This document shows, piece after piece, positions 5,913 to 64,000 of a stretch of 64,000 bases of DNA. Below the pieces are notes generated by a model, which had not been told where the DNA came from, did not search any database, and worked only from the letters and a program-made list of their open reading frames with translations. Both the position numbers and the translations under genes were made by a program. The stretch spans positions 27,148 through 91,147 of the forward strand of contig CAZEJB010000007.1 of NCBI GenBank assembly GCA_964512635.1, given 5' to 3'. How positions within the stretch are numbered: position 1 is the first letter of the stretch; each line of letters begins with the position of its first letter. The DNA is from an uncultured Planctomycetales bacterium (GTDB lineage Bacteria > 4484-113 > JAFGCY01).

Positions 5913-6020
5913 GGGTCTCTCCGGTAGGTTGGTCTACTGCTGAAATTATAGTACCCGCGATGCGCCGGACGCGCATCAAAGTGCCTCCGGGAGGCTTATC
6001 ACGCGCTTTAGCCCGGGATA

Positions 6021-7001: not shown

Positions 7002-7051
7002 CTGCAACCTCAGGCAGGCTGTACAGGTCGACAGGATACGAGGCCGTCGAT

Positions 7052-8002: not shown

Positions 8003-8069
8003 TCACAGTCTGAACCAGACCGGCACGTCAACTATACCCGTGGACTGCGGCGTTTGCAGTTAAAACGGG

Positions 8070-8525: not shown

Positions 8526-8607
8526 TACGCTGCCACCTTCAATGACGAAGACTCGCCGTCCTCTGTTCTGATCCAGTCTGTTAAGCGGCGCCCCGGCAGT
8601 TCAGGCC

Positions 8608-9618: not shown

Positions 9619-9636
9619 GCCTGGGCTTCCCCTGCG

Positions 9637-20257: not shown

Positions 20258-21091
20258 TCAGCCCTCGCTGATCAGGCGTTCGAGGCGGTCGATGTAGGCC
20301 CGGGCGGTGACGATGCCCTGGTTGTCCTGCGCCTCCTCGGCCAGCGCCAGGTTGCCGCGCGCGGTGGACAGCGCCTCGACGTACTTCATCTCATAGATCA
20401 GGTCTTCAAGCACGGGGTCTTCCCGCGGCAGGGCCTTGAGCTGTTCCATCAGCGCCAGCTTCTGGGCCACCTGCTTCTGCTTGCGTTCGCTCAGCCGAAG
20501 CACGCTGCCATGGGCTCCGACCTTCTTTTGATCCTCACGCCGCTGCAGCGCCTTTTGCTTGCGTGCCTCCACGCGTCCCTTGTTCGCCTCTATCCGGGCC
20601 TGCCGCGCGGCCAGAGCCTTCTCCTGGCGCAGCTTGCGGATGTCCTTCTTCTCCTCGGCGGTCAGCGGGCGGCCCAGCTCCTTCTCCCGGGAGCGCTGGA
20701 CCCAGGGGCTGTAGCCTCCGCCTTCGCGCTTCCTGAAGATGTTCAGCTCCCTGAACATCTCAGAGCTCTGGTTGGCCTTGTACTGGTCGAAGTCGGTCCA
20801 CTCGTGCTCGCTCTCGTCGAAGAGCTCGGCGTCTTCGCGGTCAAGCTCAACCAGCGGGCTGCGGCGATAGAACAGGTAGAACATCCAGCCTGCCAGTGGC
20901 AGCAGCGCCACCGCAAAGGCCCATGGCGCCCCGCGGTTATAGCGCCACAGCGCGTCGCGGTAGACCCAGTAGACAACATAGAGGTGGGCGAGCAGCAGGA
21001 TCAGGTCAATGACCAGCAGCCAGGGCACGAAGGGGTTGTCCGCTTCGAAGAACCAGTGCAGGCGGTGGCTGAGCTCGCGCAGGAAGTCCAC
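20258..21091 (-). CDS. Hypothetical membrane protein with a coiled-coil, basic C-terminal half
   Basis: Two N-terminal TM helices, then a K/R/E-rich helical region. Confidence 0.45.
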   Translation of the reverse strand: MDFLRELSHRLHWFFEADNPFVPWLLVIDLILLLAHLYVVYWVYRDALWRYNRGAPWAFAVALLPLAGWMFYLFYRRSPLVELDREDAELFDESEHEWTDFDQYKANQSSEMFRELNIFRKREGGGYSPWVQRSREKELGRPLTAEEKKDIRKLRQEKALAARQARIEANKGRVEARKQKALQRREDQKKVGAHGSVLRLSERKQKQVAQKLALMEQLKALPREDPVLEDLIYEMKYVEALSTARGNLALAEEAQDNQGIVTARAYIDRLERLISEG

Positions 21092-31151: not shown

Positions 31152-31322
31152 CTTTTCCTTTGGATTAGAAACGAGACCAAGCTTTAGGCTTGGTCCTAGC
31201 CAATACTAAGGTACCACAAGGCAGTCATACTGACAAGGAATATTGCTTTAATGCAGTACGATTTTTTAGGCGGGTCTTAACTTTCCGTGACTGTTCAGCC
31301 CTTGATTCCGGCAAAAACAGGA

Positions 31323-32981: not shown

Positions 32982-33139
32982 CGCAGTCCAGTCCACAGTT
33001 GCTCCATCCCCACCGGGGCCGGGCCCCGCTTGCTTCCATCCTCGTCGCCGCCGGAGCGGCTCTCCGCTTGCCCCTCGGACCTGGCGCCGCGGATCTTGCA
33101 CCAGCCGGGCGGCATCCCGCCGCCGCTTACATCTCTATT

Positions 33140-33682
33140 TTAGCTCTCGCCTTCGATCTCCACGGCCTCAACTTCCTCGCCCGCGAGAAACTTCTCGATG
33201 ACGTCCTTCAGCTCCTCTTCCTGACCAGGCTTGTAGCCATAGTGCTGAAAGAGCAGGTTACGATCCTGGTCGATAACAAAGCTGGCCGGGCTGGCCTTGA
33301 CGCCAAAGTCGCCGCTGACTTCGAGGTCAGTGTCGAGCAGCACGTCGAAGCTGTAGTCGTTGCTCTTGAAGAAGGGCTCGACCTGAGGCAGGGTCAGGCT
33401 GGTGTCACGGCTGATGATCACGAAAACCACGCCGTCATCCTTGTAATCGTCGTAATACTCCTGCAGGTGCGGAAGCAGCTCGTTGCAGGGCTTGCAGCCG
33501 ACCTGCCAGAAATCGATGACCACCAGCTTGTGGTCCTCAAGCAGGCCCTTGAGGCTGACCTCGTCGCCGCTGAGGTTCTCCAGTTCAAAGTTTGACACGC
33601 CGGCTGCATGGGCTGCCAGGGGCAGTGTGAACAGCAGGGGGGCGGCCAGAATGATGGCGGCCAGAGCGATCAGGTGGCGCAT
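33140..33682 (-). CDS. Periplasmic TlpA-like thiol:disulfide oxidoreductase
   Basis: Signal peptide, ...VVIDFWQVGCKPCNELLP... (CxxC), and a thioredoxin-fold C-terminal region. Confidence 0.8.
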   Translation of the reverse strand: MRHLIALAAIILAAPLLFTLPLAAHAAGVSNFELENLSGDEVSLKGLLEDHKLVVIDFWQVGCKPCNELLPHLQEYYDDYKDDGVVFVIISRDTSLTLPQVEPFFKSNDYSFDVLLDTDLEVSGDFGVKASPASFVIDQDRNLLFQHYGYKPGQEEELKDVIEKFLAGEEVEAVEIEGES

Positions 33683-33794
33683 GTGCTTCCTCCGAAGCCA
33701 GGATTTTAGCATTCGCTTTACATGAAACGAGCGCAGGCGAAGGCCACAGACAGGACAGCCTGCAAGCTACGGATGTTCATAGTAGAGTCGAAGC

Positions 33795-33975
33795 CGATGG
33801 CAAATGGCGAATGGCTAATGGCTAATGGCTAATGGAAAGGCAGAAGCGAGTGCTTGTTCAACATCGTGTATGCAGCGTCATGCTATAGTTTAGGCAACAT
33901 GATATAGCACTGTATAAGGTAGGTGCTTTCTTTCTTTTCCTTTATTCTCGCCATTCGCCATTAACCATTAGCCAT
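33795..33975. repeat. AT-rich mini-element flanked by inverted repeats rich in CTAATGG heptamers
   Basis: The left arm is gatggcaaatggcgaatggctaatggctaatggctaatgg (33795-33834). The right arm is ccattcgccattaaccattagccatc (33950-33975). The core of about 115 bp is much lower in GC than its flanks. Confidence 0.5.
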
Positions 33976-34618
33976 CTTTTGCCTGGAGCCTGCCACCTAT
34001 GATCTCCGGCGCGAGGCTGCCGAGGCTGAGCACAATCTTGGTCATCTCCTCGACGCTGAGGTTGATGTCTTCCAGGTCTGCCTCCGGGATTAGCAGGTTC
34101 TGGCCGGTAGCCGGGACAGGCGTCGCTGGAAGGAACACCATGTAGTAGGGGCCGTCGGCCAGCTGCACCGGATCCGGCGAACTGAGGATACCGAGGCAGC
34201 GGGCGTTGGCCACCCGCACCAACACGACATTGCCCAGCGCGGCCGCCTGCTGGCCTTCCTTACGCGACAGCAGTCCGATGACCTGCTCGGCGGAAGTGTA
34301 GACCTTATTGATCAGCGGCACGCGCGCGACCATGCTGGTGATGAACGCGCCCACACGTTTGCCGGTGATGCGCCGCGCAAGGTAACCGACGGCGCAGATC
34401 AGGATTATCGCGGCGGCGACAGTGATTGCGTAGTTAAGCGTCGGCGGGATGCCCCAGGCCTCGGAGAGCGCGTGCAACCCGCGGCCGAGCAGGGATTCCT
34501 CGCCAAACCAGTCGTTGAGCTTGCCCACCACAAAGCCGACCACGGCGATGGTGATCAGGAGCGGCAGTATCGCCAGCACGCCGGCGATGAAGGTGGCGCT
34601 GAAACGGCGCAGGAGCAT
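33968..34618 (-). CDS. DUF502-family membrane protein
   Basis: MLLRRFSATFIAGVLAILPLLITIAVVGFVV.... Two N-terminal TM helices followed by a conserved domain typical of DUF502. Confidence 0.55.
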   Translation of the reverse strand: MLLRRFSATFIAGVLAILPLLITIAVVGFVVGKLNDWFGEESLLGRGLHALSEAWGIPPTLNYAITVAAAIILICAVGYLARRITGKRVGAFITSMVARVPLINKVYTSAEQVIGLLSRKEGQQAAALGNVVLVRVANARCLGILSSPDPVQLADGPYYMVFLPATPVPATGQNLLIPEADLEDINLSVEEMTKIVLSLGSLAPEIIGGRLQAKDG

Positions 34619-46417: not shown

Positions 46418-48451
<2,034 letters not shown>

Positions 48452-48522
48452 ACTCTGATTATAGGCAGGGCGCGCTCTGCTCTCGAGTCGCAAAAAATGC
48501 ATGAAGACGTGTTGGAACTGGT

Positions 48523-49449
48523 CTAGTCCGGGTTGCCTGCATCGAGGAATGGGTTTGGCTCGTCTGCGCGGTGCAACTTTCCATGCCAGGGAACAAGCTG
48601 GCCCGGCTCGAAGTAGAGGACCTGAAAGTCGTCCTGCAGAATCTTGTCATTATTCTCACCGCAGACCACTACACGCCAGACGCTGGGTTGGCGATTGCCA
48701 ATCTTGGCCGGGTCTGTTTCAAGCTTGTGGCTGGCGGAGTAACTCGTGGGCTCAATGCGCTGAATACAGATCGCGCCGGGTTCCCATACTTCCGGTTCAA
48801 AAGTCTGATACACACTACCGCTGATGGGGTTTACCGCCGCCGCCATGTTCATGTATTGCATTGAGCGGCTCAGTGTCATCCAGTCCTTGATCTGCCCCGG
48901 CTCCTTCAACTGGGGACAGAGTTCCAAACCATCCTGGGGCAGTTCCCCGTGTGCTACGGCGTAATCAATCACCTTGGCGACAATGGTCTTTGGAGCAAAC
49001 GTGACGCCTTCTCCCAGATCCAGTACGCCAGTCATGCGTTTTTCTGCGGGTGTCAGGTCTGCAAGTTTGTCGGTATAGATGAAGCCGGCGGGCAGGCTGA
49101 TGATTTCTCCCGCCTGTGCGGGCGGCTCTTGTTGGGGTGTGCTTCCAGGTACAACAGGCAGTTCTGAAAGCAACTCACCGAAGGACTGACCGAGCAAAAT
49201 CCTGCGGCTTGCCTCTGGGCTTTCGGTTGTTTCCCGGGCTGGTGGCCCTCCAGTCCGGCCTACCTGAGTTTTAGTATTCGTGGAAGGCGCTGGCTTGGGA
49301 TTGCAGGAAAGCAGGCCGAATACAAGAATCAGCACTGCTAGAAGCAAGGCCCGCGTCTCCAACCACCTGGGTGGAACGAGCGCTCGATAGTTCATCCTTT
49401 GCATATGGTCGCCTCTATCGCATCGGTATGCCTTCCTCGTTCCACCCAT
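48523..49449 (-). CDS. Hypothetical exported protein (paralog pair, member 1) in a low-GC insertion
   Basis: N-terminal TM/signal. The C-terminal half is similar to 49460..50209 ([24 protein letters not shown] vs GRFYESFQSREWTPGGIFIERMPDD). Confidence 0.45.
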
Positions 49450-49459
49450 AGACCCAAGA

Positions 49460-50209
49460 TCACTTAGGCATCATAGGCATATCTGGGTTCGCCTCCGCAG
49501 CGTCGATGATTGCCTGTTCATAGGCCGGATCAGGCTTGCCATTGGCAATCTCGTAGTCGTCCAGCAGCACCGAACCCTGCTGCGCACCGTAGATTATGTA
49601 GTGGAACATCACCGGCGCGTTGGTGCCATCTTCGCTTATGTAGTTGGGAAAGCGCGAGAGCAGAAAGTCATCAGGCATCCGCTCAATGAATATTCCGCCA
49701 GGAGTCCATTCGCGAGATTGAAAACTCTCGTAGAATCGCCCGGTAACAGGGTTGATTCCCTGACAACAGGCCAGGTAGCGCTCATCATCGCTTAGATTCT
49801 CGATGTACTGCACGCCTTGAATCTGCTCTGCATCCTGATAGAGGGCAAGCCCATTCGCCGGCAGACTGCCGGTGGTCAAGAGCTGGTTGGATGCCCGCCG
49901 CAAAGTACTAGCTACGGTATGAAAGTTGCCATTGCTCAGCAGCATGACCCCCAGTATCTTCTGTTCAGCAAGGGATGGCTCGTGGCCCAGCGCACCGGCA
50001 GGATCATGAATCCCAAACTGGAAGCCAATGGAGGCTTTGGAACGCAGATCGCTTGAGTTGGCCGGTATCAGGCCGGCTGCTGCTGTATAGGTGCTGAAGT
50101 CTGTGGTCATCATGGTCTTGCAGTCTTCCTCATTCTGACCAAAAACCCGATGGACACCCGCACAGGCAAGCACGGTCGCGATTACAAGCGGAAGCAAGTG
50201 AAGCTTCAT
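49460..50209 (-). CDS. Hypothetical exported protein (paralog pair, member 2)
   Basis: Signal peptide (MKLHLLPLVIATVLACAGVHRVFGQNEED). Paralogous to 48523..49449. Confidence 0.45.
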   Translation of the reverse strand: MKLHLLPLVIATVLACAGVHRVFGQNEEDCKTMMTTDFSTYTAAAGLIPANSSDLRSKASIGFQFGIHDPAGALGHEPSLAEQKILGVMLLSNGNFHTVASTLRRASNQLLTTGSLPANGLALYQDAEQIQGVQYIENLSDDERYLACCQGINPVTGRFYESFQSREWTPGGIFIERMPDDFLLSRFPNYISEDGTNAPVMFHYIIYGAQQGSVLLDDYEIANGKPDPAYEQAIIDAAEANPDMPMMPK

Positions 50210-50531
50210 AAATACCTCCCTTTAAAACGACATCCTAACTCGGCCAGTATAACCACGCTCAATGCCTTGTCAATGAATGTTCCCAAAGTTTCCCACTCCA
50301 AGCAGGAATGTCATCACCTATAAGTGTTGTTGCATGTAGTGCGAGGCCCAGTTTAATGCTGTTCATAGTCTATATGCGCAACTTTGACACTGTTTACCCA
50401 CAAGGCAAATCTGTTTCGAGCGAACCGCTCGGTCTATTCATGCTCATCTTGATTCTAAGCTGACTGAGAAAGTACAGATCTTGATTCAACATTCTGACCA
50501 CTCTAGAGTCAAACGCGGACATCCACAATTG

Positions 50532-50620
50532 GCGCGAACTCGCGCTCCTCGACCAGAAGGTCGCTGATATGGGTGTCCTGCTCGCTCATGGGCTGATTAT
50601 AGGCAGCGCGGTCGTCGGCT
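50532..50620. repeat. Direct repeat copy B (degenerate duplicate of the acs 5' end and promoter)
   Basis: See 48393-48480. It encodes only a truncated remnant, [20 protein letters not shown].... Confidence 0.6.
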
Positions 50621-52055
50621 AGGACCCGCCCGCCTTACCGTAGTCCAGGGCCTGATAGCGCGCAAAACGCGGCAGTGCCCAGTCCCTGTACCAGTCGCGG
50701 GAGCTTGCCGTCGCCTGCAGCGCATTGGCGGCCCAGGCGCTGTAGGTCTGGCGGGCTGTCCCCTCGAAGCTGCGCTGCGCCAGCTCGGGGATAAGTTGGA
50801 TTGCCTCGGCCTGCTGTGCCTCGCTGAGCGGCTGGCCAATGCGCTGCTGCCAGTAGACATAGCTTTGCGCACCGGGCAGCGCCCAGAAATAGGCCAGCCG
50901 TCCGGCGGGCAGATTCCACAGGTCCGGCTGAGTGCCGCCGTAGAACACCAAGGGCGAAGTCGTCGCATAGTCCAGCGACGCCATGGCCTCCGCCTGCCGC
51001 GTTGCCGGCGGGGCCCAGCAGATATTCAGACGAGCCAGCCAGGTCATCGGCTGCTGGATCAACTGCGGGTCTGCTGTCCGCGCCTGGGCCAGCCGCAAAA
51101 AACAGCCCCGCAGTTCCGCCGCGAGTTCGAGGTCCCGGTCCTGCAGCGCCTGGTCAGTGATTCCGGTAAAAAGGTCATAGTCGCGCAGCAGCAGCGGCGG
51201 GTCATCCGTCAGTTCCGCGTCGAGCACCAGACCAGCCACGGCAAGGTTGCCGGGATCTTTGAAGTCCTCAAAGTGCTCGTGCACATAGCTCAGCGGAAAG
51301 ATTCGGGGCAGTTCAGCATGTGCTGCGCTGTTGCCGGCCCTGATCGACTCCCGGGCGCGCTGATAGTCATTTTGCTGCAGGTAGAACTCAGCCAGAGAGT
51401 AGTGCGCCCAGGCCTCGTCAGGCATCTCGCGGACGAGCGTCCGCAACAGTTTGCCTTCTTCACCGATGAAATGAAACAGACCCCCGCGGAATTCCGCGCG
51501 ATCCTCCGGCGTCATCCAGCCACCCTCTTCGCCGGCGCTGCCGCTGAGCTCCGGCCACAGGCGGTAGGCATGGTCCATCTGCAGCTCCAGAAAGCGCAGG
51601 CGCATGGTGATGCTGGCTTCCTTGCGCTCTTTAAGCACCTCGGCGAAGTCAGTCGCATCCCGGATCAGCCGCCACAGGGCTTCGCCTTCCGGCAGTTCGT
51701 TCTGGCCGTCCAGCAGATACCAGTTCGCCGCGCCAATGCTGCAGAACTCCCGCAGTTCAAAGAAGCGTGGATCGGGCACCATGTCATGCCAGTCAATGAG
51801 CACACTCTCTGGAACAAAGGCCGGATGCCAGCCCTGCTGGCGCTGGGCCGCGGTGCTGGCACGCTCAAAGACCGCGGCGCTGTAGCGGTCCCACAGGGCA
51901 TCGCCGGTTGGCACAGGCGGAGCAGAAAACACATCCAGCAGAGCGATTGCGGCTTCGGGAGGACTGGAACTGCCGGCTGCCAGCGCCGGGTCATCCCGGA
52001 AAGCTGTGCAAAGGAGCAGCAGGACGGTCACAAAGACGCAGCGCACAACACTCAT
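50619..52055 (-). CDS. Exported protein, paralog family A member 1
   Basis: Signal peptide. Shares VPTGD.LWDRYSA, DPGNLAVAGLVLD and L.AGN.A...ELP motifs with 53248..54981, and the GN/ELP helical motif with 60568..61950 and 63211..64000. Confidence 0.55.
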   Translation of the reverse strand: MSVVRCVFVTVLLLLCTAFRDDPALAAGSSSPPEAAIALLDVFSAPPVPTGDALWDRYSAAVFERASTAAQRQQGWHPAFVPESVLIDWHDMVPDPRFFELREFCSIGAANWYLLDGQNELPEGEALWRLIRDATDFAEVLKERKEASITMRLRFLELQMDHAYRLWPELSGSAGEEGGWMTPEDRAEFRGGLFHFIGEEGKLLRTLVREMPDEAWAHYSLAEFYLQQNDYQRARESIRAGNSAAHAELPRIFPLSYVHEHFEDFKDPGNLAVAGLVLDAELTDDPPLLLRDYDLFTGITDQALQDRDLELAAELRGCFLRLAQARTADPQLIQQPMTWLARLNICWAPPATRQAEAMASLDYATTSPLVFYGGTQPDLWNLPAGRLAYFWALPGAQSYVYWQQRIGQPLSEAQQAEAIQLIPELAQRSFEGTARQTYSAWAANALQATASSRDWYRDWALPRFARYQALDYGKAGGS

Positions 52056-52201
52056 TTAGTGATCATAGCGTCCGGCTGGACAAGCGCTGCTACCGAAACA
52101 CCCGCCTTGCTTTCTGTATAGCTTTGATGAAGCCGGCTGCAACCTTACCGCTGAAATGCTATATTCGCCCCACGCATCACCCTGCCAGAGAGGAGACGAC
52201 A

Positions 52202-53236
52202 GTGTCAACAAAGCCTGCTATTGATTCCAGTGAGCTTCAGGTGCATATGACCCTCTGCGCCCTGGCTTATACCGACGAAGTCGCTAACCCCGGTGAAACC
52301 GTGCCGCAGCAGATCCTGCGCATGCGCACCGACATCAACGCCGCGCTACGCAACCCGGCCTATGCCACTACCAACGACTGGCTGATCGCCTGGGGGCCCG
52401 GCCTGAGCTCCGACCGCAGCAACATGTTCTATGTCGCCAAGCAGCGCGGCGCGCCGGTCTTCGCCATCGTCATCCGCGGCACTGACTGGTCCTTTATCAA
52501 TGACTGGTACGAGGACGGTGATGTCTGGACCATGACCAACCCCTGGCAGGTTGGCCAGGTCGACGCTTATAACGAGATCTCCACGGGCTCGCATTTCGGC
52601 GTCCACCGGCTCAGTTCCCTAAAGAGCACCTACTACCTCGTCGGCGAGGATCCGGCCAGCGACCAGGCGGAGGTGGGCCTTAGCCCGCTGACTGCCTGGG
52701 AGTTCCTCTGCGGCCAGGCGCGCTGGCGCGGCGACATCGCCGTCTATGTCACCGGGCACAGTCTTGGCGGCTGTCTGGCCAACCTGCTGAGCTGCAAGCT
52801 GGACTATGAGCTGTCGATCGACCCGCTGCCGATCAGCCTCTTCAGCACGACCTTTGCCGCGCCGACCGCCGGCAACTCTAACTATGCACAGTATTACGAG
52901 CAGCGCTATGGCTATAGCGCTCTGCGCGTGTTCAACGAGCTTGACCTGGTACCCCGCGGCTGGAGCGACGTCGGCAGCATCCCGGACATGTATGAGCCCT
53001 ATATCTCCTGCCCCCTCAGCCTGCGCGCACTGTTTGACACCGTCTATGAAGGGCTGCAGCTCAGTGGCGTGGACTACACCCAGCCGGGCCCCAGCGAGAG
53101 CCTGCCAAACAGCATCAACATGCAGTGGCCGGACTTCTGCCAGCAGGTGGCCTGGAACCACAGCAGCCAGACCTACCTGCAGTTGCTCGGCGCGCCGCTG
53201 ACCGGCCCGAATACCGGCTTCCCAACCTGTCCCTGA
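52202..53236 (+). CDS. Lipase class 3 (alpha/beta-hydrolase, GHSLGG nucleophile elbow)
   Basis: ...VFAIVIRGTDWSFINDWYEDGD... ...AVYVTGHSLGGCLANLLSC.... Lipase_3 family signature. No signal peptide. GTG start at 52202 with an AGGAG RBS (alternative ATG at 52247). Confidence 0.7.
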   Translation: MSTKPAIDSSELQVHMTLCALAYTDEVANPGETVPQQILRMRTDINAALRNPAYATTNDWLIAWGPGLSSDRSNMFYVAKQRGAPVFAIVIRGTDWSFINDWYEDGDVWTMTNPWQVGQVDAYNEISTGSHFGVHRLSSLKSTYYLVGEDPASDQAEVGLSPLTAWEFLCGQARWRGDIAVYVTGHSLGGCLANLLSCKLDYELSIDPLPISLFSTTFAAPTAGNSNYAQYYEQRYGYSALRVFNELDLVPRGWSDVGSIPDMYEPYISCPLSLRALFDTVYEGLQLSGVDYTQPGPSESLPNSINMQWPDFCQQVAWNHSSQTYLQLLGAPLTGPNTGFPTCP

Positions 53237-53247
53237 CCTGAGTGGGG

Positions 53248-54981
53248 CTACTCGGTGCCTTCGCCCTTCAGCGGCCAGGTAGGCCGCGGCGGAAGCTGGC
53301 GGTAATCCAGTCGCGCCAGCTCGGCCAGCATGCTGGCTGTGTAGGCCGAGCTCAGCTGCTGCGCATAGTCCTGGGCCAGCCCGTTGAGCGCCCACGTAGT
53401 CAGTACCGCCTGGTTGTTCGGTATCTCCACAATCTCTGGTGGTACCTCGCCTGCTTCCGGCGGAGCGGGGAAGTCCTGTTTCACGCGCTGGTACTGCAGG
53501 CTGGCCCAGCGCGGCAGATAGTTGTAATGCTGATCCGCAGCGAAGACCGCGTTGAACCAGGCAGCGTCGCTCGGCCCCTCCCACTGGCCAAGCCGCAGTG
53601 GCCAGACTGAAGCGAGCCCGCCCGTCGGGAGTCCAAGAAAATAGGCGGTGTAACCTGCGGGATGGTTGTTGCGCTGTGCGTCCCGCACTGCTTCACCGGG
53701 CGTGTAGTCATACAGAAACTGCGGGATGCTGGCGAAGAGCGCAGCCTCCTGATCCAGCAGGTCCTGCTGGGCAGCTTCAACCGCCGGCGCGTTGTTCTGC
53801 CAGGCCTGCGCCAGGTCCGAGAGCAGGTTGCTTGCCGTGAACAGGAAGCGCGGATCGCTGCGCCGCGTGGCCGCCAGACGCAGGCCATAGACATGCAGAT
53901 CCTGCATCGCCGAGGCATCGCCAGAGAGCACGATGGACTGGACAAATGCGGCCAGGCCCCAGTCCTCAAAGAGCACGCCCGGTGGTGTTTCAGTGCAGCC
54001 GCTGTCCAGCACAAGCCCTGCCACCGCCAGATTTCCGGGATCGCTGAAGGTGCTGGACCTGCCCGCCACGGCACTGAGCGGAAAGAGATACGGCAGCTCG
54101 TAGACCGGTGCCTGGTTACCGGCCCGCAGCATGTCCAGGGCACCGGCCTCGTCGCCTTGTAGTGCCAGGTACTGGGCCCTCACATAGAAGGGCCAGGCCG
54201 ACTGCGGGTGCGCCGCGCTGAAGTCATCAAGAAATGCTGGCGGGCCGCTGGCAACCCTGCGGCCATGCAGCTGCACGCCGCTGCGCCGATCCGGCTGCGG
54301 CCAGCGGCCGATCGCATCCTGCAGCAGCCACTCTGCGTGCGTGATGTCGGACAAGGTTCCTTCTATTTCCAGGCTGCGCAGCTCGGCCGCGAGACTTGCC
54401 TGTCCACGTTCTCGCAGGATCTTCAGCGGAGCTAGACTCGCGCCGGCCATGACAGCGATGTCCGGCACCGCGCTGGCCTCGACCGCCGCCTCGTAAGGTA
54501 CGAGCCAGGGCGGCGCGGCCGGCGGCTGCTCGCGATTCAGGTAGGCCCGCTCGCGCCTGCCATCCAGCCAGTCATGGACTGACTGAACATAGGCGTTTTG
54601 CATGTCCAGTTCAAAGAAGCTGTACTCAGTCTGGCCATAGAGGCAATAGTGGTACAGCTCCCAGTAGCGCGGGTCAGCGCCAAGATCCGCCCAGCTGATC
54701 AGCGTGTCTTCGTCCAACAGCGCCGGGTGCCAGTCCTGCAGGTCGTCCGGCGGATTTAGCGCCCGCCGATACACCTCCGCGCTGTAGCGGTCCCATAGCT
54801 CATCGCCCGTTGGCACTGGTGCTGCGCCAAAGACTTCGCTGTACGACGGCAATTCCTGCGGAAGAACACTTGAACTCTCTGTTTCAGGACTGGCAGGTTC
54901 TTCAGCGGCCCGGGCGGCGGCCGCCAGCAGCAGCAGAGCGAGCAGGCAGCAGGAGATTGCAAGGCGCAGTGTGATGGACAT
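53248..54981 (-). CDS. Exported protein, paralog family A member 2
   Basis: Sec signal (…LLLLAAAARA-AEEP). Homologous to 50619..52055 throughout. Confidence 0.55.
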   Translation of the reverse strand: MSITLRLAISCCLLALLLLAAAARAAEEPASPETESSSVLPQELPSYSEVFGAAPVPTGDELWDRYSAEVYRRALNPPDDLQDWHPALLDEDTLISWADLGADPRYWELYHYCLYGQTEYSFFELDMQNAYVQSVHDWLDGRRERAYLNREQPPAAPPWLVPYEAAVEASAVPDIAVMAGASLAPLKILRERGQASLAAELRSLEIEGTLSDITHAEWLLQDAIGRWPQPDRRSGVQLHGRRVASGPPAFLDDFSAAHPQSAWPFYVRAQYLALQGDEAGALDMLRAGNQAPVYELPYLFPLSAVAGRSSTFSDPGNLAVAGLVLDSGCTETPPGVLFEDWGLAAFVQSIVLSGDASAMQDLHVYGLRLAATRRSDPRFLFTASNLLSDLAQAWQNNAPAVEAAQQDLLDQEAALFASIPQFLYDYTPGEAVRDAQRNNHPAGYTAYFLGLPTGGLASVWPLRLGQWEGPSDAAWFNAVFAADQHYNYLPRWASLQYQRVKQDFPAPPEAGEVPPEIVEIPNNQAVLTTWALNGLAQDYAQQLSSAYTASMLAELARLDYRQLPPRPTWPLKGEGTE

Positions 54982-55928: not shown

Positions 55929-57038
55929 GTGGAGCTCAGATACAATGCCTGCGTGACCCTCATCACTCCCCTGCTGGCTCGCGTTATTGTCGGTTTTGAA
56001 GACACTCTAGAGGAGTGCTTCGGCGATCCCAACTACGTTGAGCCGACCGCGGAAGAACGCGCCGCGGCGGAAGCCGCCGATCTGGCCGAGCGCGAACAGG
56101 ACCGGCAGGAGCGCATGGCCGCGCTCGAAGCACGATTGGCTGAACTGCCGGAAGACACCGATCCTCGTTACAAACAAATGGGAGAGTTCCTGTACTCGGT
56201 GGGGCTCCCAAACAAGCCGACGCACCATGGTCTGCTGGATCCAACAGAGCCGTTGAACGAAGGGCTGACCGTGCTGTGGGCTGATTCGTCTGAAGAACTC
56301 GCCAACAAGCACGCTCTTAAGTACGACCTGCCACGCCTCGACTTACACCTCCACAATCTGCCCCAACTGGTGCATGAACTTGAGAAACGCCCCATCCTGA
56401 ATCTGTACAAGAGCATGATCATTAGCACCGAAGGTCCAACTGAGGTCTATGCTGCTCTCAGGCGCCTGCTGGCAAGTCCAGCCAATTCTGACCGGACCAA
56501 GCTCTATGTTGGACTGCAGCGCGACTGGTGGGGCGAGAACAATGGAGACTTCTATTTGTCACTCGTCCTTGACCCTAGCTACAACGCCCTGTATGACGAA
56601 ATCGCTGCCGAGTATTCAATTCTACGAGCCTATCTCAAGAGCTTCAAACTGATTGACACCCCCCGGAGTGAGCATGGCGCGGGCCGGCGCGTCGAGCTGC
56701 TGATCGGTTCAACGGCTTCGCCGGAGCATGAGGTCTCGATGAGTTGCAGCGTCTTCGCCACGGAAGAACTGGCCTCAGAGCTGCGACGCGGCATCTTCGT
56801 AGGCCGTCGAGGGTGGCTGTTGGCCGACCATGTTACACCGCAACAACTGGCAGACCACCTTGCTACAGAGGTACGGGGGCTGGTTGACGTTAACTGGGAA
56901 CGTCTGTGCGTACATCTTTCAGAGTTCTTTGATTGGGATGGCTACGAATCCCTCTTTCAACTGTCAAACGCAGAGTTCGAGCGCCTGATCATGAAGCCAA
57001 GTCTGGACCTTTTTCAAAGAAGTAGCCTCAGGCGCTAG
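55929..57038 (+). CDS. Hypothetical cytoplasmic protein in a low-GC patch
   Basis: 369 aa, no recognisable family. Followed by a REP copy. Confidence 0.4.
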   Translation: MELRYNACVTLITPLLARVIVGFEDTLEECFGDPNYVEPTAEERAAAEAADLAEREQDRQERMAALEARLAELPEDTDPRYKQMGEFLYSVGLPNKPTHHGLLDPTEPLNEGLTVLWADSSEELANKHALKYDLPRLDLHLHNLPQLVHELEKRPILNLYKSMIISTEGPTEVYAALRRLLASPANSDRTKLYVGLQRDWWGENNGDFYLSLVLDPSYNALYDEIAAEYSILRAYLKSFKLIDTPRSEHGAGRRVELLIGSTASPEHEVSMSCSVFATEELASELRRGIFVGRRGWLLADHVTPQQLADHLATEVRGLVDVNWERLCVHLSEFFDWDGYESLFQLSNAEFERLIMKPSLDLFQRSSLRR

Positions 57039-58058: not shown

Positions 58059-59279
58059 CTAGGTCAGCTCGAGCTTCACCGGCGCTTCCACTTCGGCCTG
58101 GCTCCAGCGCTGCGTTTCCTCAATGATCGCGAAGCTCTCGATGCCGATTTGCGGATGCTCGACCAGGTGGATCGTCCGCGCCGCTCCGACCACGCTGTGT
58201 CCTTCCGGCCCATGTGTGATGGTCACCGTCGGCCGCGTTGGCAGGTGCAGCGGGAAGGATACCGGCTCGGCGATCTCGCCTGTCGAGAGGCGCAGCATGC
58301 TGCCGCGTGGATAGAGCAGCACATGCTTCAGGAAGGCGACGAAGATCCGCGGGCTGACACTGCTCTTGGTCTGGGCCAGCAGCATCTCGTAAGCCTGGTA
58401 GGGCTGGAAGCGCTCGCGCCAGTCGCGGGCGGTCACCAGCGCGGCGAACTTGTCGGCCAGGCTGACGATCTGGCTGAACTCGTGGATCGCCGAGCCGCGC
58501 TTGTTCTTTGGGTAGCCGCCACCGTAGTAGTTCTCATGATGCTCAAAGGCCACTATGGCGGCCGTACTGCTGAAAGAGTTGACTTCCTCAAGGATGCGGC
58601 GGCCGAAGTAGCTGTGCTTGCGCACCTCGCCCCACTCGCTCTCCGTCAGGCGGCCGGGCTTGGCCAGCACCCGCGGGTTGACCCGCAGCATGCCCACGTC
58701 ATAGAACAACGCAGCGATGCCGAGGTCCAGCAGGTGCGGCACGTTATAGCCCAACCCGGCGCCGATGCAGAGGCTGTAGACCCAGGCCGTCGGGCAGTGG
58801 CGCACGCAGCGCGCCTGGAAGAATCGTGTTTGTCGCAGCAGCTCAAAACAGCGCCGTGAGCTGAACAGCAGGTCGATCGTGTGGTGGATCGTCTCCTCGA
58901 CGACACGGGCCACCGCGGGCTCGCGGGTGCAGTGCTCGGGCCGGGCGAAGCTGGGGACCAGCTCCCAGAAGGCCTCGCGCAGCATACGCCCCATTCCGTC
59001 GTAGGTCGGCGGGCTGTCGTGGTTCAGCACCAGGCGCTTGTAGAACTCCACGTCCTGGTCGGAGAAGTGGATATAGATATGATCGACCTGCTGCTCACGC
59101 AGGCGCTCGATCAGCGCGCTGTCCAGCGCTGTGTTGTGGCGCAGCAGCATCTGGCCTCGGTGCTCCAGGTTGCGTGAAAGCACCATGCCAGGAACGGCCC
59201 GCTCGATCGGCACGCGGAATTCGGGCAGCGCCATCGCCGGCGCGTTATCCGTCCTGCTCAGTTCCTTGGCCACATCCAT
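58059..59279 (-). CDS. HD-GYP domain protein (putative c-di-GMP phosphodiesterase)
   Basis: HD motif region (...HLLDLGIAALFYDVGM...) and HHENYYGGGYPKN (GYP signature). Confidence 0.75.
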   Translation of the reverse strand: MDVAKELSRTDNAPAMALPEFRVPIERAVPGMVLSRNLEHRGQMLLRHNTALDSALIERLREQQVDHIYIHFSDQDVEFYKRLVLNHDSPPTYDGMGRMLREAFWELVPSFARPEHCTREPAVARVVEETIHHTIDLLFSSRRCFELLRQTRFFQARCVRHCPTAWVYSLCIGAGLGYNVPHLLDLGIAALFYDVGMLRVNPRVLAKPGRLTESEWGEVRKHSYFGRRILEEVNSFSSTAAIVAFEHHENYYGGGYPKNKRGSAIHEFSQIVSLADKFAALVTARDWRERFQPYQAYEMLLAQTKSSVSPRIFVAFLKHVLLYPRGSMLRLSTGEIAEPVSFPLHLPTRPTVTITHGPEGHSVVGAARTIHLVEHPQIGIESFAIIEETQRWSQAEVEAPVKLELT

Positions 59280-59324: not shown

Positions 59325-59380
59325 CGCGCACTCAGCAATTGGCCGCGGTATGACGCGTGCGCACAGCTACAATCGCTGCA
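59325..59380 (+). promoter_or_regulatory. Conserved 5' sequence of cassette copy 1
   Basis: tgcgcacagctacaatcgctgcagtgcgtgcggtctacagcaaaccggg is nearly identical to 61958-62010. It contains a TACAAT -10-like hexamer 7 nt before the GTG. Confidence 0.35.
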
Positions 59381-60571
59381 GTGCGTGCGGTCTACAGCAA
59401 ACCGGGTGAAGTACTGAAGGGGTGGAACGAGGCTCTGCTTGGCCTGCGTGAGAGTCCTCTGCCTCGCTACTGGTGGGCTCAGGATCAAGCCGTCTCGGCA
59501 GCACGCCCCTGGTATGCCCGCGGGATCGGACTGTACCTGTTTGCGGCTGTGCTCAGCGCTGCGGTTTGCATAGTGATCTGGCTCCTCAATCAGCGGCTGG
59601 CGTCTTTCCCGGCCCGCAGCCTCACTGCGCATGAACTCGCCGCAGTCGAGCTTGGACTAGTCAGTGCCGCCGCCAGTGCTTCCGTCTGCCTCTATCTCAT
59701 TACGCTGTTTCTTTCCCGTTTACATCGCGCCATCTTCATCTGCCTCGGCTTTCTGGAAGCCCAGCCCAGGCGTGTGCAGCGGCGCAGCCTGGACGACCTG
59801 CTGGCAGTAGCCCGGCTTTCCGAAATGGAGTTGCTAGTTGGTCTCCTGGCTTATTGCCTTCGCAGCCTGCTGCCACCTCTGTGCGCAGTGTACTTTTCAG
59901 CGACGCTGTTCATCGTCTGCCTGCAAGCCACTGCCGGCGAGACTCGCGTGAATCCAATGCTTTTACTCTCCTACCTGCCGGTCGTACTGGCTGCCTGTCT
60001 GGGAGGAGCACTTGGGACGGCCAACAGCCTGCTGCTCAGCGTCGTACTGAGCCGCAGCTACCGTGCCAGCCTGCTGCCTCAGCTGGGCTCGGCGATGCAG
60101 ATTATGCTGCAGGCGGTCAGTATCCCGCTGCTGCTGGCCACATTCTCAGAGAGTGCTTTTCTCGGGTTGGTCTTCGATCGCTTTGGCCTTGCAGGCAGTC
60201 AGCTTGTGGTCATTGGGGAATTGTTCTTTCTGTTCCTCCTCGTCTACACGGCACGGAGAGTCACCGGACTGCGCTTCCTGCTGGGAAGCGGGCCATTGAT
60301 AGCGCTTGGACTGTTTCTTGTCTTGCCGCTGGCCTCATCCATCCTCGACGGCGATCATTCCGGTTTAGCGTCATTACTGCTGCTTGGTCTCCTTGCAGTT
60401 CAGTGTTGCTTTTGCGGCGTCAATCCGGTTTTGCCGAAGCTGTTGTCTGAAGGCAGTCATGAGGTCTTCCTCTTTACTATCAGCCTGATCCCGCAGCAGC
60501 TGGCACTGCTGCTGGTCCTGGCCGAACTGGCGCGGGATGCGGTGCTGCGTCGAAAGTGGGAGGGGACATGA
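59381..60571 (+). CDS. Polytopic membrane protein, family B copy 1
   Basis: About 10 TM helices. 45-50% identical to 61988..63214, with the same N-terminus (MRAVYSKPG.....GW..AL.GLRE.P) and C-terminus (ARDA..RRKWE). Alternative GTG start at 59357. Confidence 0.6.
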   Translation: MRAVYSKPGEVLKGWNEALLGLRESPLPRYWWAQDQAVSAARPWYARGIGLYLFAAVLSAAVCIVIWLLNQRLASFPARSLTAHELAAVELGLVSAAASASVCLYLITLFLSRLHRAIFICLGFLEAQPRRVQRRSLDDLLAVARLSEMELLVGLLAYCLRSLLPPLCAVYFSATLFIVCLQATAGETRVNPMLLLSYLPVVLAACLGGALGTANSLLLSVVLSRSYRASLLPQLGSAMQIMLQAVSIPLLLATFSESAFLGLVFDRFGLAGSQLVVIGELFFLFLLVYTARRVTGLRFLLGSGPLIALGLFLVLPLASSILDGDHSGLASLLLLGLLAVQCCFCGVNPVLPKLLSEGSHEVFLFTISLIPQQLALLLVLAELARDAVLRRKWEGT

Positions 60572-61950
60572 GAGGCGTTCAGGAGAGACAGCGGTCCGAG
60601 TATCAGCGCGATCCCCGCTGGCAAAATGCTCAGAGACGTATAGCCCTCCTTTTCTGGGCGCTGCTCTTGCTGTCGCCGCTGGTTCTGTGCATGCCGATCC
60701 TGGCGGCGCGTCTTCTGCCCGTGCGGCATCCGGCATCGACCGGCGACAAGCTGGCCGATGCACTGGTAGACGCATCAAGTCATGCGCGTAAGCACGCGCA
60801 GGGCAGGGAACTGCCAGGCAATGGAGTCCTGACTAGCGGTCTGCTGGAAGAGCTGGAGCCGGCACTTGAGGGCGAGCCTGGCTGGAACGAACTGCTGGTG
60901 CTGGTTTCGAGCTATGACCCGGGGCCAATGGCTGCGGGCGGTCAGGGGCGCACGGAAGAGATTATCGAGAAGGCCAGGCAAAGCGGGGATCTAAGCCCTG
61001 AGCTCATGCTTATTGACCTGCAGCTTGCTCGGAAGGCACGAAGAGCCGAGGCCATCAAGGCTCATCTTCTCTCGATAAAGGAAGAAGAGTTTGATCGTCA
61101 ACAGGAACTGGCAGGCCAGATTGAGCGCCTCGAAGCCCGGCACGAGGAGATGTACATTCAGAGCTTGAAGCAGCTTCAATCCGTGGACCAGGACAACGCT
61201 TATCCACTCTACCTGGAGGCCCAGGCTGAGCTTGAACGTGGGCATTACGACGCTGCACTGATCCTGCTCCGCAAGGGGAACGAGCTCCCAGCGGCCGATA
61301 TGCTTCCACTCAGCCCGCGAAAACAGTTTCTTGCGCTTTGCGCAACCGGGCGGCAGCCCAGGGATCAGCTCAGCGCGCTGTATCTGAGCTACGACTACAC
61401 CGGCCTGCTGAGCGAGCCATTCCTTGATATCTACGAGAGTCTGGTGGTCAACGCGCAGCGCGATTCTGACCTGCAGCTTATGGACGATCTGCATACTTAC
61501 CTGTGTCGCTTGGGCCGCGCCCACGGTGTCTCTCGCGACCTCAGTCGCAAGTGCTGGTTTGCGCTGGATGATCTGGCGAATGCGCGCCTTGGCAGCGTGG
61601 CTGGCGGCCGCAAGCTCAGCTCCGATCAGAATGCAGCAATCATCGGCCTGCGCCGGAAGCTGAACTCGCTCAGTCAGCAGTACAGTGTGCCGGCGTACCT
61701 TGGCAGCTCGCATTGGGCGACATACTCCAGTGGAGCTGGTCCCCAGGCCTGGCTCAGTTACGTCTCAGGCGTCCTGGATGAACAAGTCAGGTCTGTCAGT
61801 GAGGTTTATGACCAGGCCGGAGAATACGATTGGGAGGTCGACTGGTGTCGCAGCTCGATGCCTGGTGGCACTGTCTATGAGAGGCTGCGCGAACTTGAGC
61901 ATTTCGACTACCGCAGCCTGAACTGGACTGCCGACGGCTCAGGCCCCTAG
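60568..61950 (+). CDS. N-anchored protein, paralog family A member 3
   Basis: The start overlaps the upstream stop (ATGA). Signal-anchor (IALLFWALLLLSPLVLCMPILAA). Shares the ...LLRKGNELPAAD... motif with the other family A members. Confidence 0.55.
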   Translation: MRGVQERQRSEYQRDPRWQNAQRRIALLFWALLLLSPLVLCMPILAARLLPVRHPASTGDKLADALVDASSHARKHAQGRELPGNGVLTSGLLEELEPALEGEPGWNELLVLVSSYDPGPMAAGGQGRTEEIIEKARQSGDLSPELMLIDLQLARKARRAEAIKAHLLSIKEEEFDRQQELAGQIERLEARHEEMYIQSLKQLQSVDQDNAYPLYLEAQAELERGHYDAALILLRKGNELPAADMLPLSPRKQFLALCATGRQPRDQLSALYLSYDYTGLLSEPFLDIYESLVVNAQRDSDLQLMDDLHTYLCRLGRAHGVSRDLSRKCWFALDDLANARLGSVAGGRKLSSDQNAAIIGLRRKLNSLSQQYSVPAYLGSSHWATYSSGAGPQAWLSYVSGVLDEQVRSVSEVYDQAGEYDWEVDWCRSSMPGGTVYERLRELEHFDYRSLNWTADGSGP

Positions 61951-61957
61951 CCTGCCG

Positions 61958-61987
61958 CGAAGCCTGCGCACAGCTACAATCGTTGCA
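61958..61987 (+). promoter_or_regulatory. Conserved 5' sequence of cassette copy 2
   Basis: See 59325-59380. Confidence 0.35.
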
Positions 61988-63214
61988 GTGCGTGCGGTCT
62001 ACAGCAAACCGGGACCTCTGATTCAAGGCTGGCTGGCTGCTCTCCGCGGCTTGCGCGAGAACCCAATGGCGCATTACTGGGGAGCGCAGGACAGCGCTGC
62101 TGCCGCAGCTCGGCCGTGGCTTGCTCGCGGCAACTCCCGCCTGATCGTCGCTGCTGCCTTATGTGCTGCGATCGTGTTTTTCCTGCTGCGTCTGCAGACC
62201 AGCATGCAGCTTGAGGCCTCCGGCACCCTCGCCAGGCAGCAGATCGCCCAGGCCTACAGCAGCCTTGGCGGAATGCTGATTCTGCTGGGGGCTCTGCTCA
62301 TCTGCTGGCTGTGGATGCTGCAGCGCTTCTATCTCTGTGCCCAGCTCGCGCTGGCCTTTCTGGAGCCGCAGCCTAAAAACCGCCAGCGACGGAGCCTGGA
62401 CGACCTGCTGGCCGTCTCAAGTCTTAGTGAGCAGGAACTGCTCTGCGGCCTGCTGCTGCACTGCCTGCGACGGCTGCTGCTTCCCATGCTCATCTTTACA
62501 GCCAGCTGCGCCATCTGCGTCGCCTTTGCCCGCGGGCAGGCATTTCTGCCGGACCTGATAAGGTACGACAGCGCAAGCCTGACCGATTGGTTCCTGCTTA
62601 CAGCTGTCATCCTGGGCGCACTCATCAGTGGGATTCTTGGGGCACTGAACAGCATCCTGCTGCTGCTCAGCCTTGGTCTCAGCCGCAGACCCAGCCTGCT
62701 GCCTCTCAGCGGCGCCTGCGCCCAGGCGCTGACCCAGTTCGCCGTCGGTGCGCTGATGAGCGCGGCAATACTCAGCTCCGGTCCGCTGGCCTCTGACGCC
62801 GAGCCCCTGCCGGCATTCGAGGTCTACAGCGGCGTACTGGCCGCCTTGTTCTTCACCTGGCTGCTGGGCATCCTGGCGCTCTACCTTGCACGGCGCTGGT
62901 CATGGCTGCGCTTCGTGCTTGGGCACGGCATTCTGTTCCCGCTGTTCTTCGTGATCGGCCCACTCCTGGCCTTTGAGCTTTTCGCCGGCGACGACCCTGA
63001 GGGCAGCGCGACGCTTGTCCTGGGGCAGATCGTCATGCTGATCGCCTACTCTTTGCCCTCGCCCCTGCTTTTCGCGGCCTGGCTGCAGGGTTCAGGAGTC
63101 TTCTTTCTTTCGCTGCTGCTCGTGCTGGTGCCGGTGCAGGTGCTGGGTATCCTCGTGTTGGCCGGCTTTGCCCGGGACGCGATCCAGCGCCGCAAGTGGG
63201 AGACCCAGGCATGA
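61988..63214 (+). CDS. Polytopic membrane protein, family B copy 2
   Basis: GTG start. Homologous to 59381..60571. Confidence 0.6.
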   Translation: MRAVYSKPGPLIQGWLAALRGLRENPMAHYWGAQDSAAAAARPWLARGNSRLIVAAALCAAIVFFLLRLQTSMQLEASGTLARQQIAQAYSSLGGMLILLGALLICWLWMLQRFYLCAQLALAFLEPQPKNRQRRSLDDLLAVSSLSEQELLCGLLLHCLRRLLLPMLIFTASCAICVAFARGQAFLPDLIRYDSASLTDWFLLTAVILGALISGILGALNSILLLLSLGLSRRPSLLPLSGACAQALTQFAVGALMSAAILSSGPLASDAEPLPAFEVYSGVLAALFFTWLLGILALYLARRWSWLRFVLGHGILFPLFFVIGPLLAFELFAGDDPEGSATLVLGQIVMLIAYSLPSPLLFAAWLQGSGVFFLSLLLVLVPVQVLGILVLAGFARDAIQRRKWETQA

Positions 63215-64000
63215 AAGCTCTGCCCACCAGCAGCTCTGCGCCCCAAACTAGGCGATCAGACTTGTCAAAGCGCAGTCCGGTATGGCAACGCCGCCAGCGC
63301 CTCCTCCATTCTGCTGCTTGGGTGCTGCTGGCATTTGCCTGTATCGGAGCATGGCTGCCGCTGGCCCTTGATGCGCGGCGTCAGACACAGCCGCTTGAAG
63401 CAACCGGAGACGCCCTGCTGGATGAGTACATGCGTGTCATGGTCCAGAAGTGGCGCCGCGGCAGTCCGGACAACGATGACTGGCAGCTGGACCGCCGGGA
63501 AGTTGAAGCCCTGCGCGAACGCTTCCCTGACGATCCGCGAGTAAACGACCTGTACCTGCCGGCCATCCGCATGGAGATGGATTACGAGAAGGTTGATGTT
63601 GAGCGAACCACCTTTATTCGTAAATGTCAGAGCGAAGGGACTTCCACCCCGGCCATGGACTATCAACTGCTCGTCTCAACCCTGCGGCAGTGGCGCTCGG
63701 ATGCGGAGAAAGCGACCGGACTGAAACGGCCCCAGCGCTCCAGGTCCACGCCACAGCAGCTTGTCGACTATTACAAGGGCATCGAGAAGTGGATTAGCGA
63801 GCATCACGGGTCCGAGCGCGAGGCAGCCCTCGCCGCGGTACAGTCGGGGCCGGTGAGCTACGCCGCGGCCTACTACTTTGAAGCTGCTCGGCTCGCCGAC
63901 CTGGGCGAGTATGAAGGAGCGATGGACAAGCTGCGTGAAGGCAACCGCCAGCCTGACGCCCGGCCGAAGGCCTTCCCCTACTCCGCCTTCGTCGAGCTCT
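63211..64000 (+). CDS. N-anchored protein, paralog family A member 4 (partial; runs off the window end)
   Basis: ATGA overlap with the upstream gene. Signal-anchor (AAWVLLAFACIGAWLPLAL). Carries ...AMDKLREGNRQPDARPKAFPY.... Confidence 0.5.
   Translation, partial: MKALPTSSSAPQTRRSDLSKRSPVWQRRQRLLHSAAWVLLAFACIGAWLPLALDARRQTQPLEATGDALLDEYMRVMVQKWRRGSPDNDDWQLDRREVEALRERFPDDPRVNDLYLPAIRMEMDYEKVDVERTTFIRKCQSEGTSTPAMDYQLLVSTLRQWRSDAEKATGLKRPQRSRSTPQQLVDYYKGIEKWISEHHGSEREAALAAVQSGPVSYAAAYYFEAARLADLGEYEGAMDKLREGNRQPDARPKAFPYSAFVEL

Follow-up and report, generated by a model that had tools for sequence, protein, structure and literature searches.

What kind of system is encoded by two consecutive copies of the same gene pair, in which a polytopic membrane protein (termed B here) is followed by a protein with a single N-terminal membrane anchor (termed A), when neither belongs to a recognized family? 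The question is raised by one end of a 64-kb window of DNA (the whole stretch analysed, positions 27,148 to 91,147 of contig CAZEJB010000007.1, assembly GCA_964512635.1) from an uncultured Planctomycetales bacterium. Our analysis establishes B and A as an obligate, co-evolving two-subunit unit. As to what this unit does, the reading that we favor, and to which we assign a probability of about 0.4, is that of an envelope module in which B would act as an exporter-type membrane conduit resembling the ABC-2 permeases of ATP-binding cassette (ABC) transporters, A would act as its periplasmic partner and the ATPase would be encoded elsewhere.

Open reading frame (ORF) listing and translation confirmed the description given in the initial annotation of this DNA: the order is B1-A1-B2-A2, all four genes lie on the same strand, and the stop codon of B overlaps the start codon of A as ATGA at both junctions (60568-60571 and 63211-63214). 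B1 has its conserved start at the GTG of 59381 (MRAVYSKPG...) and not at 59357, where the longest ORF begins. The window ends within A2, and the complete orthologue was read in contig L005 (11224-12624; 466 amino acids, aa) of ‘bacterium isolate SJ870’, a metagenome-assembled genome (MAG). B1 and B2 share 38% identity (E = 3e-42). A1 and A2 share approximately 24% with a pairwise E value of 0.002, and their relationship is secured by a hidden Markov model (HMM) of the A family, which additionally picks up two further paralogues, A3 and A4, within the window.

Neither protein could be assigned to a known family by the initial annotation, and this has been borne out. Profile searches with B and A returned no match in Pfam, NCBIfam, PADLOC or the PDB sequences, and none of 93 B-family members tested produced a relevant Pfam or NCBIfam match. 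A word-indexed search of 5.8 billion proteins yielded seven relatives of B and, for A, A1 itself and nothing further. When 1.84 billion cluster representatives were then searched exhaustively with a profile, 112 of them matched B at E < 1e-3, nearly all approximately 400 aa in length and aligning over their full extent; the B family is thus a rare one. B and A are new families, and both their pairing and their operon design are clean.

The pairing was assessed at loci gathered from MAGs and metagenomes, in which six-frame ORFs were searched with the B and A HMMs built here. An A-family gene follows B in every one of the 18 cases where DNA downstream of B is available, representing approximately 15 independent contigs. 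The two genes overlap as ATGA or TGATG in 12 of these; for the remaining six the A start was set by alignment and no overlap is visible. In all 18, a Shine-Dalgarno-like GGGAGG or GGGG lies some 8-20 nucleotides (nt) upstream of the B stop codon, inside the conserved KWE/KWG codons. The pair also exists as a single natural fusion protein of 794 aa (P0091; locus L019, GCA_024645305.1, 7468-9852), which keeps the first six helices of B together with its C-terminal motif and dispenses with the C-terminal membrane extension. This fusion gene is divergent from two others, one for an extracytoplasmic function (ECF) sigma factor and one of 587 aa. Across the families, the identity matrices of B and A are correlated (r = 0.51, Mantel p = 0.0014), with A diverging the faster of the two (19-28% identity within a clade, against 30-43% for B). 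When B2 and A2 were compared with their SJ870 orthologues, the ratios of nonsynonymous to synonymous substitution (dN/dS) were 0.14 and 0.18, respectively, indicating purifying selection. The constant pairing, the fusion, the correlated divergence and the purifying selection together are the grounds on which we regard B-A as an obligate co-evolving unit.

Whether pairs recur in related genomes, and in variable copy number, had been posed as a question in the initial annotation; they do, in related genomes and in metagenomes. SJ870 carries one pair at the locus syntenic with the window and two tandem pairs on another contig (L001), and locus L004 has the order A-B-A; hence both copy number and arrangement vary. 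At locus L009, A is followed immediately by a further ORF (6883-7170), truncated where the contig stops, which aligns with the A-family HMM over the N-terminal portion of the model (E = 8e-14), so that an A gene can precede another A gene. On L001 (SJ870 contig 6), RtcB and the two B-A pairs are preceded by seven consecutive co-directional genes (2819-8290), each encoding a product of approximately 200-230 aa without a Pfam match, which may be another paralogous array.

What, then, might B be? Where the initial annotation had estimated roughly 10 transmembrane helices, we find nine clear hydrophobic helices. An AlphaFold2 model of B2 (pLDDT 77, pTM 0.79) gave comparison values of 10.7 with NosY (17% identity over 207 aligned residues), 10.5 with Wzm, 10.3 with TarG and PmtD, and 7.7-9.2 with ABCG2, ABCA3, ABCA4, CcmB, KpsM, Cdr1 and ABCG5. 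The six helices kept in the P0091 fusion match the 6-helix ABC-2 core, beyond which B possesses a C-terminal membrane extension of approximately 100 residues. The most conserved motif of B, LGFLE.QPR...R.sLDDLLAVS.LSEQELL.G, is placed in the predicted cytoplasmic loop after the second transmembrane helix (TM2); NosY and the YbhR/S-type permeases (sequences L023-L025) carry a loop of the form E..GT.E/D.LL..P.S..EIL.GK, likewise after TM2. The single local match returned by hhalign pairs residues 130-156 of B (RRSLDDLLAVSxLSEQELL) with this YbhR/S-type loop, which reads RE-E-GT..L..P....EIL in the alignment (P = 0.019, probability 2%). On the strength of the predicted model, B likely adopts an ABC-2-like fold. 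Its membership in the ABC-2 family is unproven: B1, B2 and the 93 family members tested all lack the sequence or profile matches that define the ABC-2 Pfam clan (e.g. PF01061, PF12679, PF12698). Sequence-level homology was rejected, the hhalign comparisons with both the YbhR/S-type permeases and NosY being non-significant.

Conservation across the B family is concentrated on the predicted cytoplasmic face. Top-residue frequencies are 0.67 in cytoplasmic loop 1, 0.71 in cytoplasmic loop 3 and 0.81 at the C-terminus, as against 0.19-0.29 in the periplasmic loops; the high value at the C-terminus is partly due to the Shine-Dalgarno sequence embedded in its codons.

The N-terminal anchor proposed for A is present. 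In A1, a basic tail of 26 residues, which bears a conserved P.WQ..QR motif, leads into a single transmembrane helix (residues 27-45); this is followed by an acidic domain of 415 residues that is all-helical in the predicted model. Conserved motifs comprise TGDALLD immediately after the anchor, DPRxW, and FDYxxLxW at the C-terminus, and there is one unit resembling a tetratricopeptide repeat (TPR), AWPxYxxA...GDYxxAxxxLRxGN. The Pfam threshold for TPR models is passed by A3 alone (TPR_19, 26.2 bits against a cut-off of 25); among 17 A members, TPR_19 and TPR_2 each matched two and four other models matched single members, all weakly. A role for A as the substrate-binding protein of an ABC importer was considered and rejected, given that no substrate-binding family matched and that the anchor is uncleaved and follows a 26-aa basic cytoplasmic tail. 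Of the alternative raised in the initial annotation, a known ABC-2 permease with its periplasmic binding protein, one half thus stands, in that B is probably ABC-2-like, in fold only; A is not a binding protein of that kind and no ATPase is encoded in cis.

Comparison with the closest characterized systems sets B-A apart from each of them. NosY (NosDFY, PDB 7o0y, with partners NosD and NosL) lacks significant sequence similarity to B and matches it through no Pfam family; it is a protein of approximately 275 aa with six transmembrane helices and an adjacent nosF ATPase gene, whereas B has approximately 400 aa, extra C-terminal helices, conserved terminal peptides and no ATPase in cis. NosD is a beta-helix protein unrelated to A. 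For Wzm, TarG, KpsM, PmtD, CcmB and the ABCG/ABCA transmembrane domains, the cognate nucleotide-binding domain is fused or adjacent, unlike in B, and none is known to be obligately coupled to a TPR-like partner with an N-terminal anchor; nor does Foldseek recover any of them with the B model. A likeness in layout is offered by GldF/GldG (with GldA) and LanFEG/LanI, in each of which one operon encodes both an ABC-2 permease and an accessory protein that is anchored in the membrane and acts outside the cytoplasm. There, however, the GldA or LanF ATPase is encoded in the operon, and the sequence of A shows no relationship to GldG or LanI. B-A is distinct from the NosY/NosD/NosL, GldF/GldG and LanFEG/LanI systems in having no detectable sequence membership in any ABC-2 family, a C-terminal membrane extension with terminal peptides, no ATPase in cis and a partner of a new family.

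The cytoplasmic face of B is conserved, yet the only known partner, A, is periplasmic and fast-evolving, and on these grounds we propose a conserved cytoplasmic partner. Most plausibly, this would be one ABC ATPase encoded elsewhere and common to the paralogous pairs. At 17 of the 18 B loci there is no ATPase in cis. The remaining one, L011, carries a full ABC ATPase gene on the same strand 1.3 kb upstream of B (7370-8344), its product being 41-46% identical to plasmid ABC ATPases, and in addition a diverged copy of the C-terminal half of that gene (9239-9619) that ends 77 nt before B. The two copies share 95% DNA identity over the last 304 nt and 81% protein identity over 129 aa, and the remnant looks like what is left of an operon of the order ATPase-B-A. 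Between the ATPase gene and the remnant lies an unrelated gene on the minus strand (8403-9119). No such remnants turned up when the DNA upstream of the remaining B genes was searched.

The same observations can be turned toward a complex that uses no ATP at all, with B retaining a vestigial ABC-2-like fold and serving jointly with A as scaffold, sensor or anchor, for instance to tether or regulate some periplasmic process, and the cytoplasmic face binding a non-ATPase partner such as a signaling protein. The missing ATPase at 17 loci would follow naturally, as would the approximately 100-residue C-terminal extension beyond the 6-helix core and the strongly conserved N- and C-terminal cytoplasmic peptides, which ABC-2 permeases lack. 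In both the window and SJ870, an HD-GYP gene lies divergently upstream of the pairs; in L008 one is found at a distance of 7.6 kb. The B-A fusion is divergent from an ECF sigma operon. The HD-GYP linkage, however, is explainable by residual synteny between related genomes; neighbors otherwise vary from locus to locus (RtcB, MerR/ArsC, a HAD phosphatase, a methyltransferase) with no constant signaling partner among them, and the ATPase and remnant directly upstream of B in L011 favor a link to an ATPase. We consider an ATP-independent complex rather unlikely.

The envelope-module reading itself must be set against a number of observations that weigh against it. The nine clear helices of B are at odds with the even number that the inferred topology needs. 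The input alignment for the AlphaFold2 model of B2 contained only seven sequences, and Foldseek searches of the PDB with the B model gave a best E value of 0.34, with TM-scores of 0.1-0.2 and no ABC-2 entries. At the sequence level, hhalign of B against Sinorhizobium meliloti NosY was not significant (P = 0.46-0.69), no ABC-2 profile was matched (Pfam with the 93 members, NCBIfam and the PDB sequence profile), and the match to the post-TM2 motif, though visible as a resemblance by eye, is statistically weak. The model of A is poor (pLDDT 56), which leaves sequence features as the only basis for its proposed fold and role. The more distant B-like proteins at L021 and L026 stand without an A partner. 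Finally, no ORF of the 64-kb window contains a Walker A motif, and L011 excepted, no ABC ATPase lies within approximately 10 kb of B in the loci examined.

Genes downstream of A suggest a further role, that of an accessory to glycopolymer export, in which B, like Wzm, TarG and KpsM, would move the polymer and the TPR-like A would scaffold its periplasmic modification by a downstream deacetylase. TPR proteins scaffold periplasmic modification in the Pga, Pel and alginate systems. A carries its TPR-like motif, and a polysaccharide deacetylase with a signal peptide (Polysacc_deac_1) is encoded right after A in L005 (12836-14137) and L007 (2925-4256). These are, however, two of approximately 15 loci and fall into a single orthologous group; genes for glycosyltransferases or synthases are absent from the vicinity, and the equivalent position after A2 falls beyond the window end. 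We regard this role as very unlikely.

Table 1 Features of the B-A locus and its surroundings. Positions are those of the window; GC3 denotes G+C content at third codon positions.
Feature	Position	Strand	Description
5' repeat copy 1	59352-59406	+	Candidate -10 box, putative leaderless start and first 9 codons of B1
TACAAT hexamer (candidate -10)	59368-59373	+	7 nt before the B1 GTG at 59381
B1	59381-60571	+	396-aa polytopic membrane protein; B-family HMM E = 7e-117; GC3 0.66
Shine-Dalgarno-like GGGAGGGG for A1	60558-60565	+	Within the conserved C-terminal KWEG codons of B1
A1	60568-61950	+	460 aa; A-family HMM E = 1.6e-148 (A1 is one of the HMM seeds)
5' repeat copy 2	61959-62013	+	Candidate -10 box, putative leaderless start and first 9 codons of B2
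TACAAT hexamer (candidate -10)	61975-61980	+	7 nt before the B2 GTG at 61988
B2	61988-63214	+	408 aa; B-family paralogue of B1
A2	63211-64000	+	First 263 codons, gene cut by window end; A-family HMM E = 5.7e-84
A3	50619-52055	-	A-family paralogue with Sec signal peptide, without B partner; A-family HMM E = 8e-20; TPR_19 E = 1e-5
Class-3 lipase gene	52202-53236	+	Pfam Lipase_3 E = 8e-14; GTG start with Shine-Dalgarno; without signal peptide
A4	53248-54981	-	A-family paralogue with Sec signal peptide, without B partner; A-family HMM E = 6e-24
HD-GYP protein gene	58059-59279		Divergent, upstream of B1; Pfam HD_5/HD matches; sequence HHENYYGGGYP

How is such a pair expressed? The initial annotation had reported a nearly identical stretch of about 50 nt ahead of both B genes, with a TACAAT hexamer 7 nt before each GTG, and this proved accurate (Table 1). 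The two copies are identical at 52 of 55 positions, with a spacing of 2607 nt, and form the single strong direct repeat returned by the repeat finder; the core, from -24 to +26 relative to the GTG, is identical at 49 of 50. Around the repeat, DNA identity drops to approximately 50-70%, and outside it the cassettes are hardly alignable. When eight B loci were aligned, a TAtAAT-like hexamer was found approximately 7-9 nt ahead of the conserved start (ATG, GTG or TTG) in all eight, with no conservation of the upstream sequence around it. In L004, the position of the hexamer shows that the B start was annotated too far downstream. B has no Shine-Dalgarno sequence ahead of it, and a scan for consensus sigma-70 promoters found no -35/-10 pair. 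An RNA element in the 5' stretch was considered and rejected, Rfam giving no match and the folding z-scores being -1.0 and -0.1.

Judged by its sequence and placement, the TACAAT box looks like a -10 element of the leaderless type. Experiments in Deinococcus have demonstrated that a -10 box beside an ORF drives leaderless mRNAs (PMC12340547), and earlier work based on computation and RNA-seq had already described this arrangement (PMC3160421, PMC4007540). The likeness to the leaderless units of Deinococcus-Thermus and Actinobacteria lies in a TANNNT a few nt before an ATG or GTG without a Shine-Dalgarno sequence (PMC12340547, PMC4007540, PMC3160421); the difference is that the host here is of another lineage, encodes TonB and FliS homologues, and has its transcription starts predicted from the DNA. 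Of 48 genes in the window, 8 have a strict -10 hexamer 5-9 nt ahead of a start codon in frame, as compared with 0 of 48 control positions, and further, looser cases are visible. Examples of starts adjacent to a hexamer occur at 57231 and, on the minus strand, at 20258-21091, 2792-3394 and 46418-48502. Since the hexamer also precedes the starts of other genes, the box would be a generic leaderless promoter, one for each B-A pair, and the host seems to use leaderless transcription throughout its genome. Hence, the earlier suggestion of a promoter or leaderless start holds insofar as a promoter-like -10 box is suitably placed, but the arrangement is not specific to the cassette. Several of the longest-ORF starts in the window are probably wrong, the true start being the codon beside the hexamer.

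The near identity of these two short tracts contrasts with the divergence of the genes that they precede. The closest relative of the host is SJ870, whose contig L005 is syntenic with the window from 46.6 to 64 kb at 77-90% DNA identity. It holds B2-A2 (90% and 87% protein identity) but lacks B1-A1 at the syntenic site, where an aquaporin, an ArsC-type phosphatase and a MerR regulator are found instead. The GC3 of B1-A1 is 0.66-0.68 compared with 0.75-0.86 for the genes shared with SJ870, the window-specific genes having values of 0.62-0.68 (A3, 0.76), and the closest relatives of B1 share no more than 36% identity with it. A recent tandem duplication was accordingly rejected on the basis of the 38% and 24% identities, the absence of B1-A1 from SJ870 and the gap in GC3; of the tandem duplication originally described, what remains is that paralogous pairs stand side by side. 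Rather, B1-A1 looks like an old paralogue placed at this locus recently, because it is absent from SJ870, has the lower GC3 and has no relative above 36%. Within the 50-nt tract, each difference between B2 of the window and its SJ870 orthologue is a match to B1 of the window, and from these sequences the tract looks like the signature of a short gene-conversion or recombination event. In the scenario that we envisage, the old B1-A1 pair would have landed beside the resident B2-A2, and gene conversion would then have homogenized the 5' 50 nt, providing both pairs with the same promoter and N-terminus.

Two segments of the window, 48433-52157 and 55929-57038, are missing from the syntenic L005; they hold a 249-aa secreted ORF (49460-50209, minus strand), A3 and a 369-aa ORF without a family match, the 249-aa and 369-aa ORFs having a GC3 of 0.62-0.64. 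The region from 48 to 62 kb looks like a hot spot of gene gain and loss. Elsewhere, positions 30000-34000 have a GC content of 0.57-0.58 compared with approximately 0.62-0.65 in the remainder and contain few GC3-rich ORFs. This low-GC stretch may be an integrated element; a phage-integrase family match was obtained somewhere between 1 and 45 kb.

The A-family HMM and Pfam also confirmed the surroundings as first described, namely A paralogues around a lipase and a divergent HD-GYP gene upstream (Table 1). The lipase gene sits between A3, which is divergent from it, and A4, which is convergent. A4 has an orthologue in SJ870 (67% identity, dN/dS 0.26). A lipase without a signal peptide flanked by A paralogues that possess one is, by analogy, a layout reminiscent of effector/periplasmic-immunity arrangements. 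A function for A3 and A4 as lipase-specific foldases (Lif) was rejected, as 0 of 17 A members match Lipase_chap at E <= 0.1; nor would they be co-transcribed with the lipase, because A3 is divergent and A4 convergent.

It was from this setting that a polymorphic or immunity-type module had been proposed. Under such a reading, B-A and the secreted A3 and A4 would guard the envelope against a membrane- or lipid-targeting toxin, with divergent copies answering to different toxins. The lantibiotic immunity system LanFEG/LanI, and the periplasmic Tli proteins that neutralize lipase effectors, provide analogues. The signal-peptide-bearing A3 and A4 on either side of the lipase would fit, together with the differences in copy number between close relatives, the several divergent paralogues per genome, the faster evolution of A than of B and the position in a 48-62 kb gain and loss hot spot with low-GC3 insertions. 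Against this, no toxin or secretion-system gene lies beside any B-A pair, PADLOC gave no match, and A matches neither Pfam Lipase_chap nor the known Tli families. The orthologue dN/dS values of 0.14-0.26 denote purifying selection, diversifying selection being rejected, and no B-A relatives were found on viral contigs. Furthermore, the convergent lipase/A4 and divergent A3 are unlike the usual co-directional effector-immunity pairs. An immunity function is therefore improbable, and the original proposal gains no positive evidence from these comparisons.

Returning to the envelope module, we can outline how it might operate. Each pair would be its own transcription unit, expressed from a leaderless mRNA beginning at the B start codon, and A would be made by translational coupling through its overlapping start and the Shine-Dalgarno sequence within the C-terminal codons of B. 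B would be a polytopic protein of the inner membrane, folded over its first six helices like an ABC-2 (type V) exporter permease, and A would extend a helical, TPR-like domain of approximately 400 residues into the periplasm from its one N-terminal helix anchor. A dimer of B could then serve as the membrane conduit or extractor, and A as periplasmic acceptor or specificity subunit. The cytoplasmic face of B would dock a partner encoded elsewhere, most likely an ABC ATPase shared by several pairs, while the periplasmic loops of B and A would diverge together to give each pair a distinct specificity.

It is tempting to go one step further and to speculate that each B-A pair serves as a plug-in specificity module for a new kind of ABC-2-fold machine, the several pairs of a genome sharing one ATPase encoded elsewhere or needing none. 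The cytoplasmic face of B would constitute the common docking surface, the loops of B together with A would set the substrate, and the secreted A paralogues would represent the binding domain in free-standing form. This extension is doubtful, and we offer it as a speculation.

Nothing in these results contradicts established principles, and their immediate impact is modest. The locus offers a clean example of operon design in a genome that appears rich in leaderless transcripts: translation of the first gene would begin without a leader, and that of the second would be coupled to it through a Shine-Dalgarno sequence set in the conserved C-terminal codons of the first. Should the envelope-module reading be true, the consequences would reach further: B and A would represent two new protein families and a new ABC-2-fold architecture, in which a permease is obligately coupled to an anchored periplasmic helical partner, without an ATPase in cis and in several divergent copies per genome. 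Such an architecture would be relevant to the reuse of type V ABC scaffolds and to the question of how one ATPase may serve several permeases.

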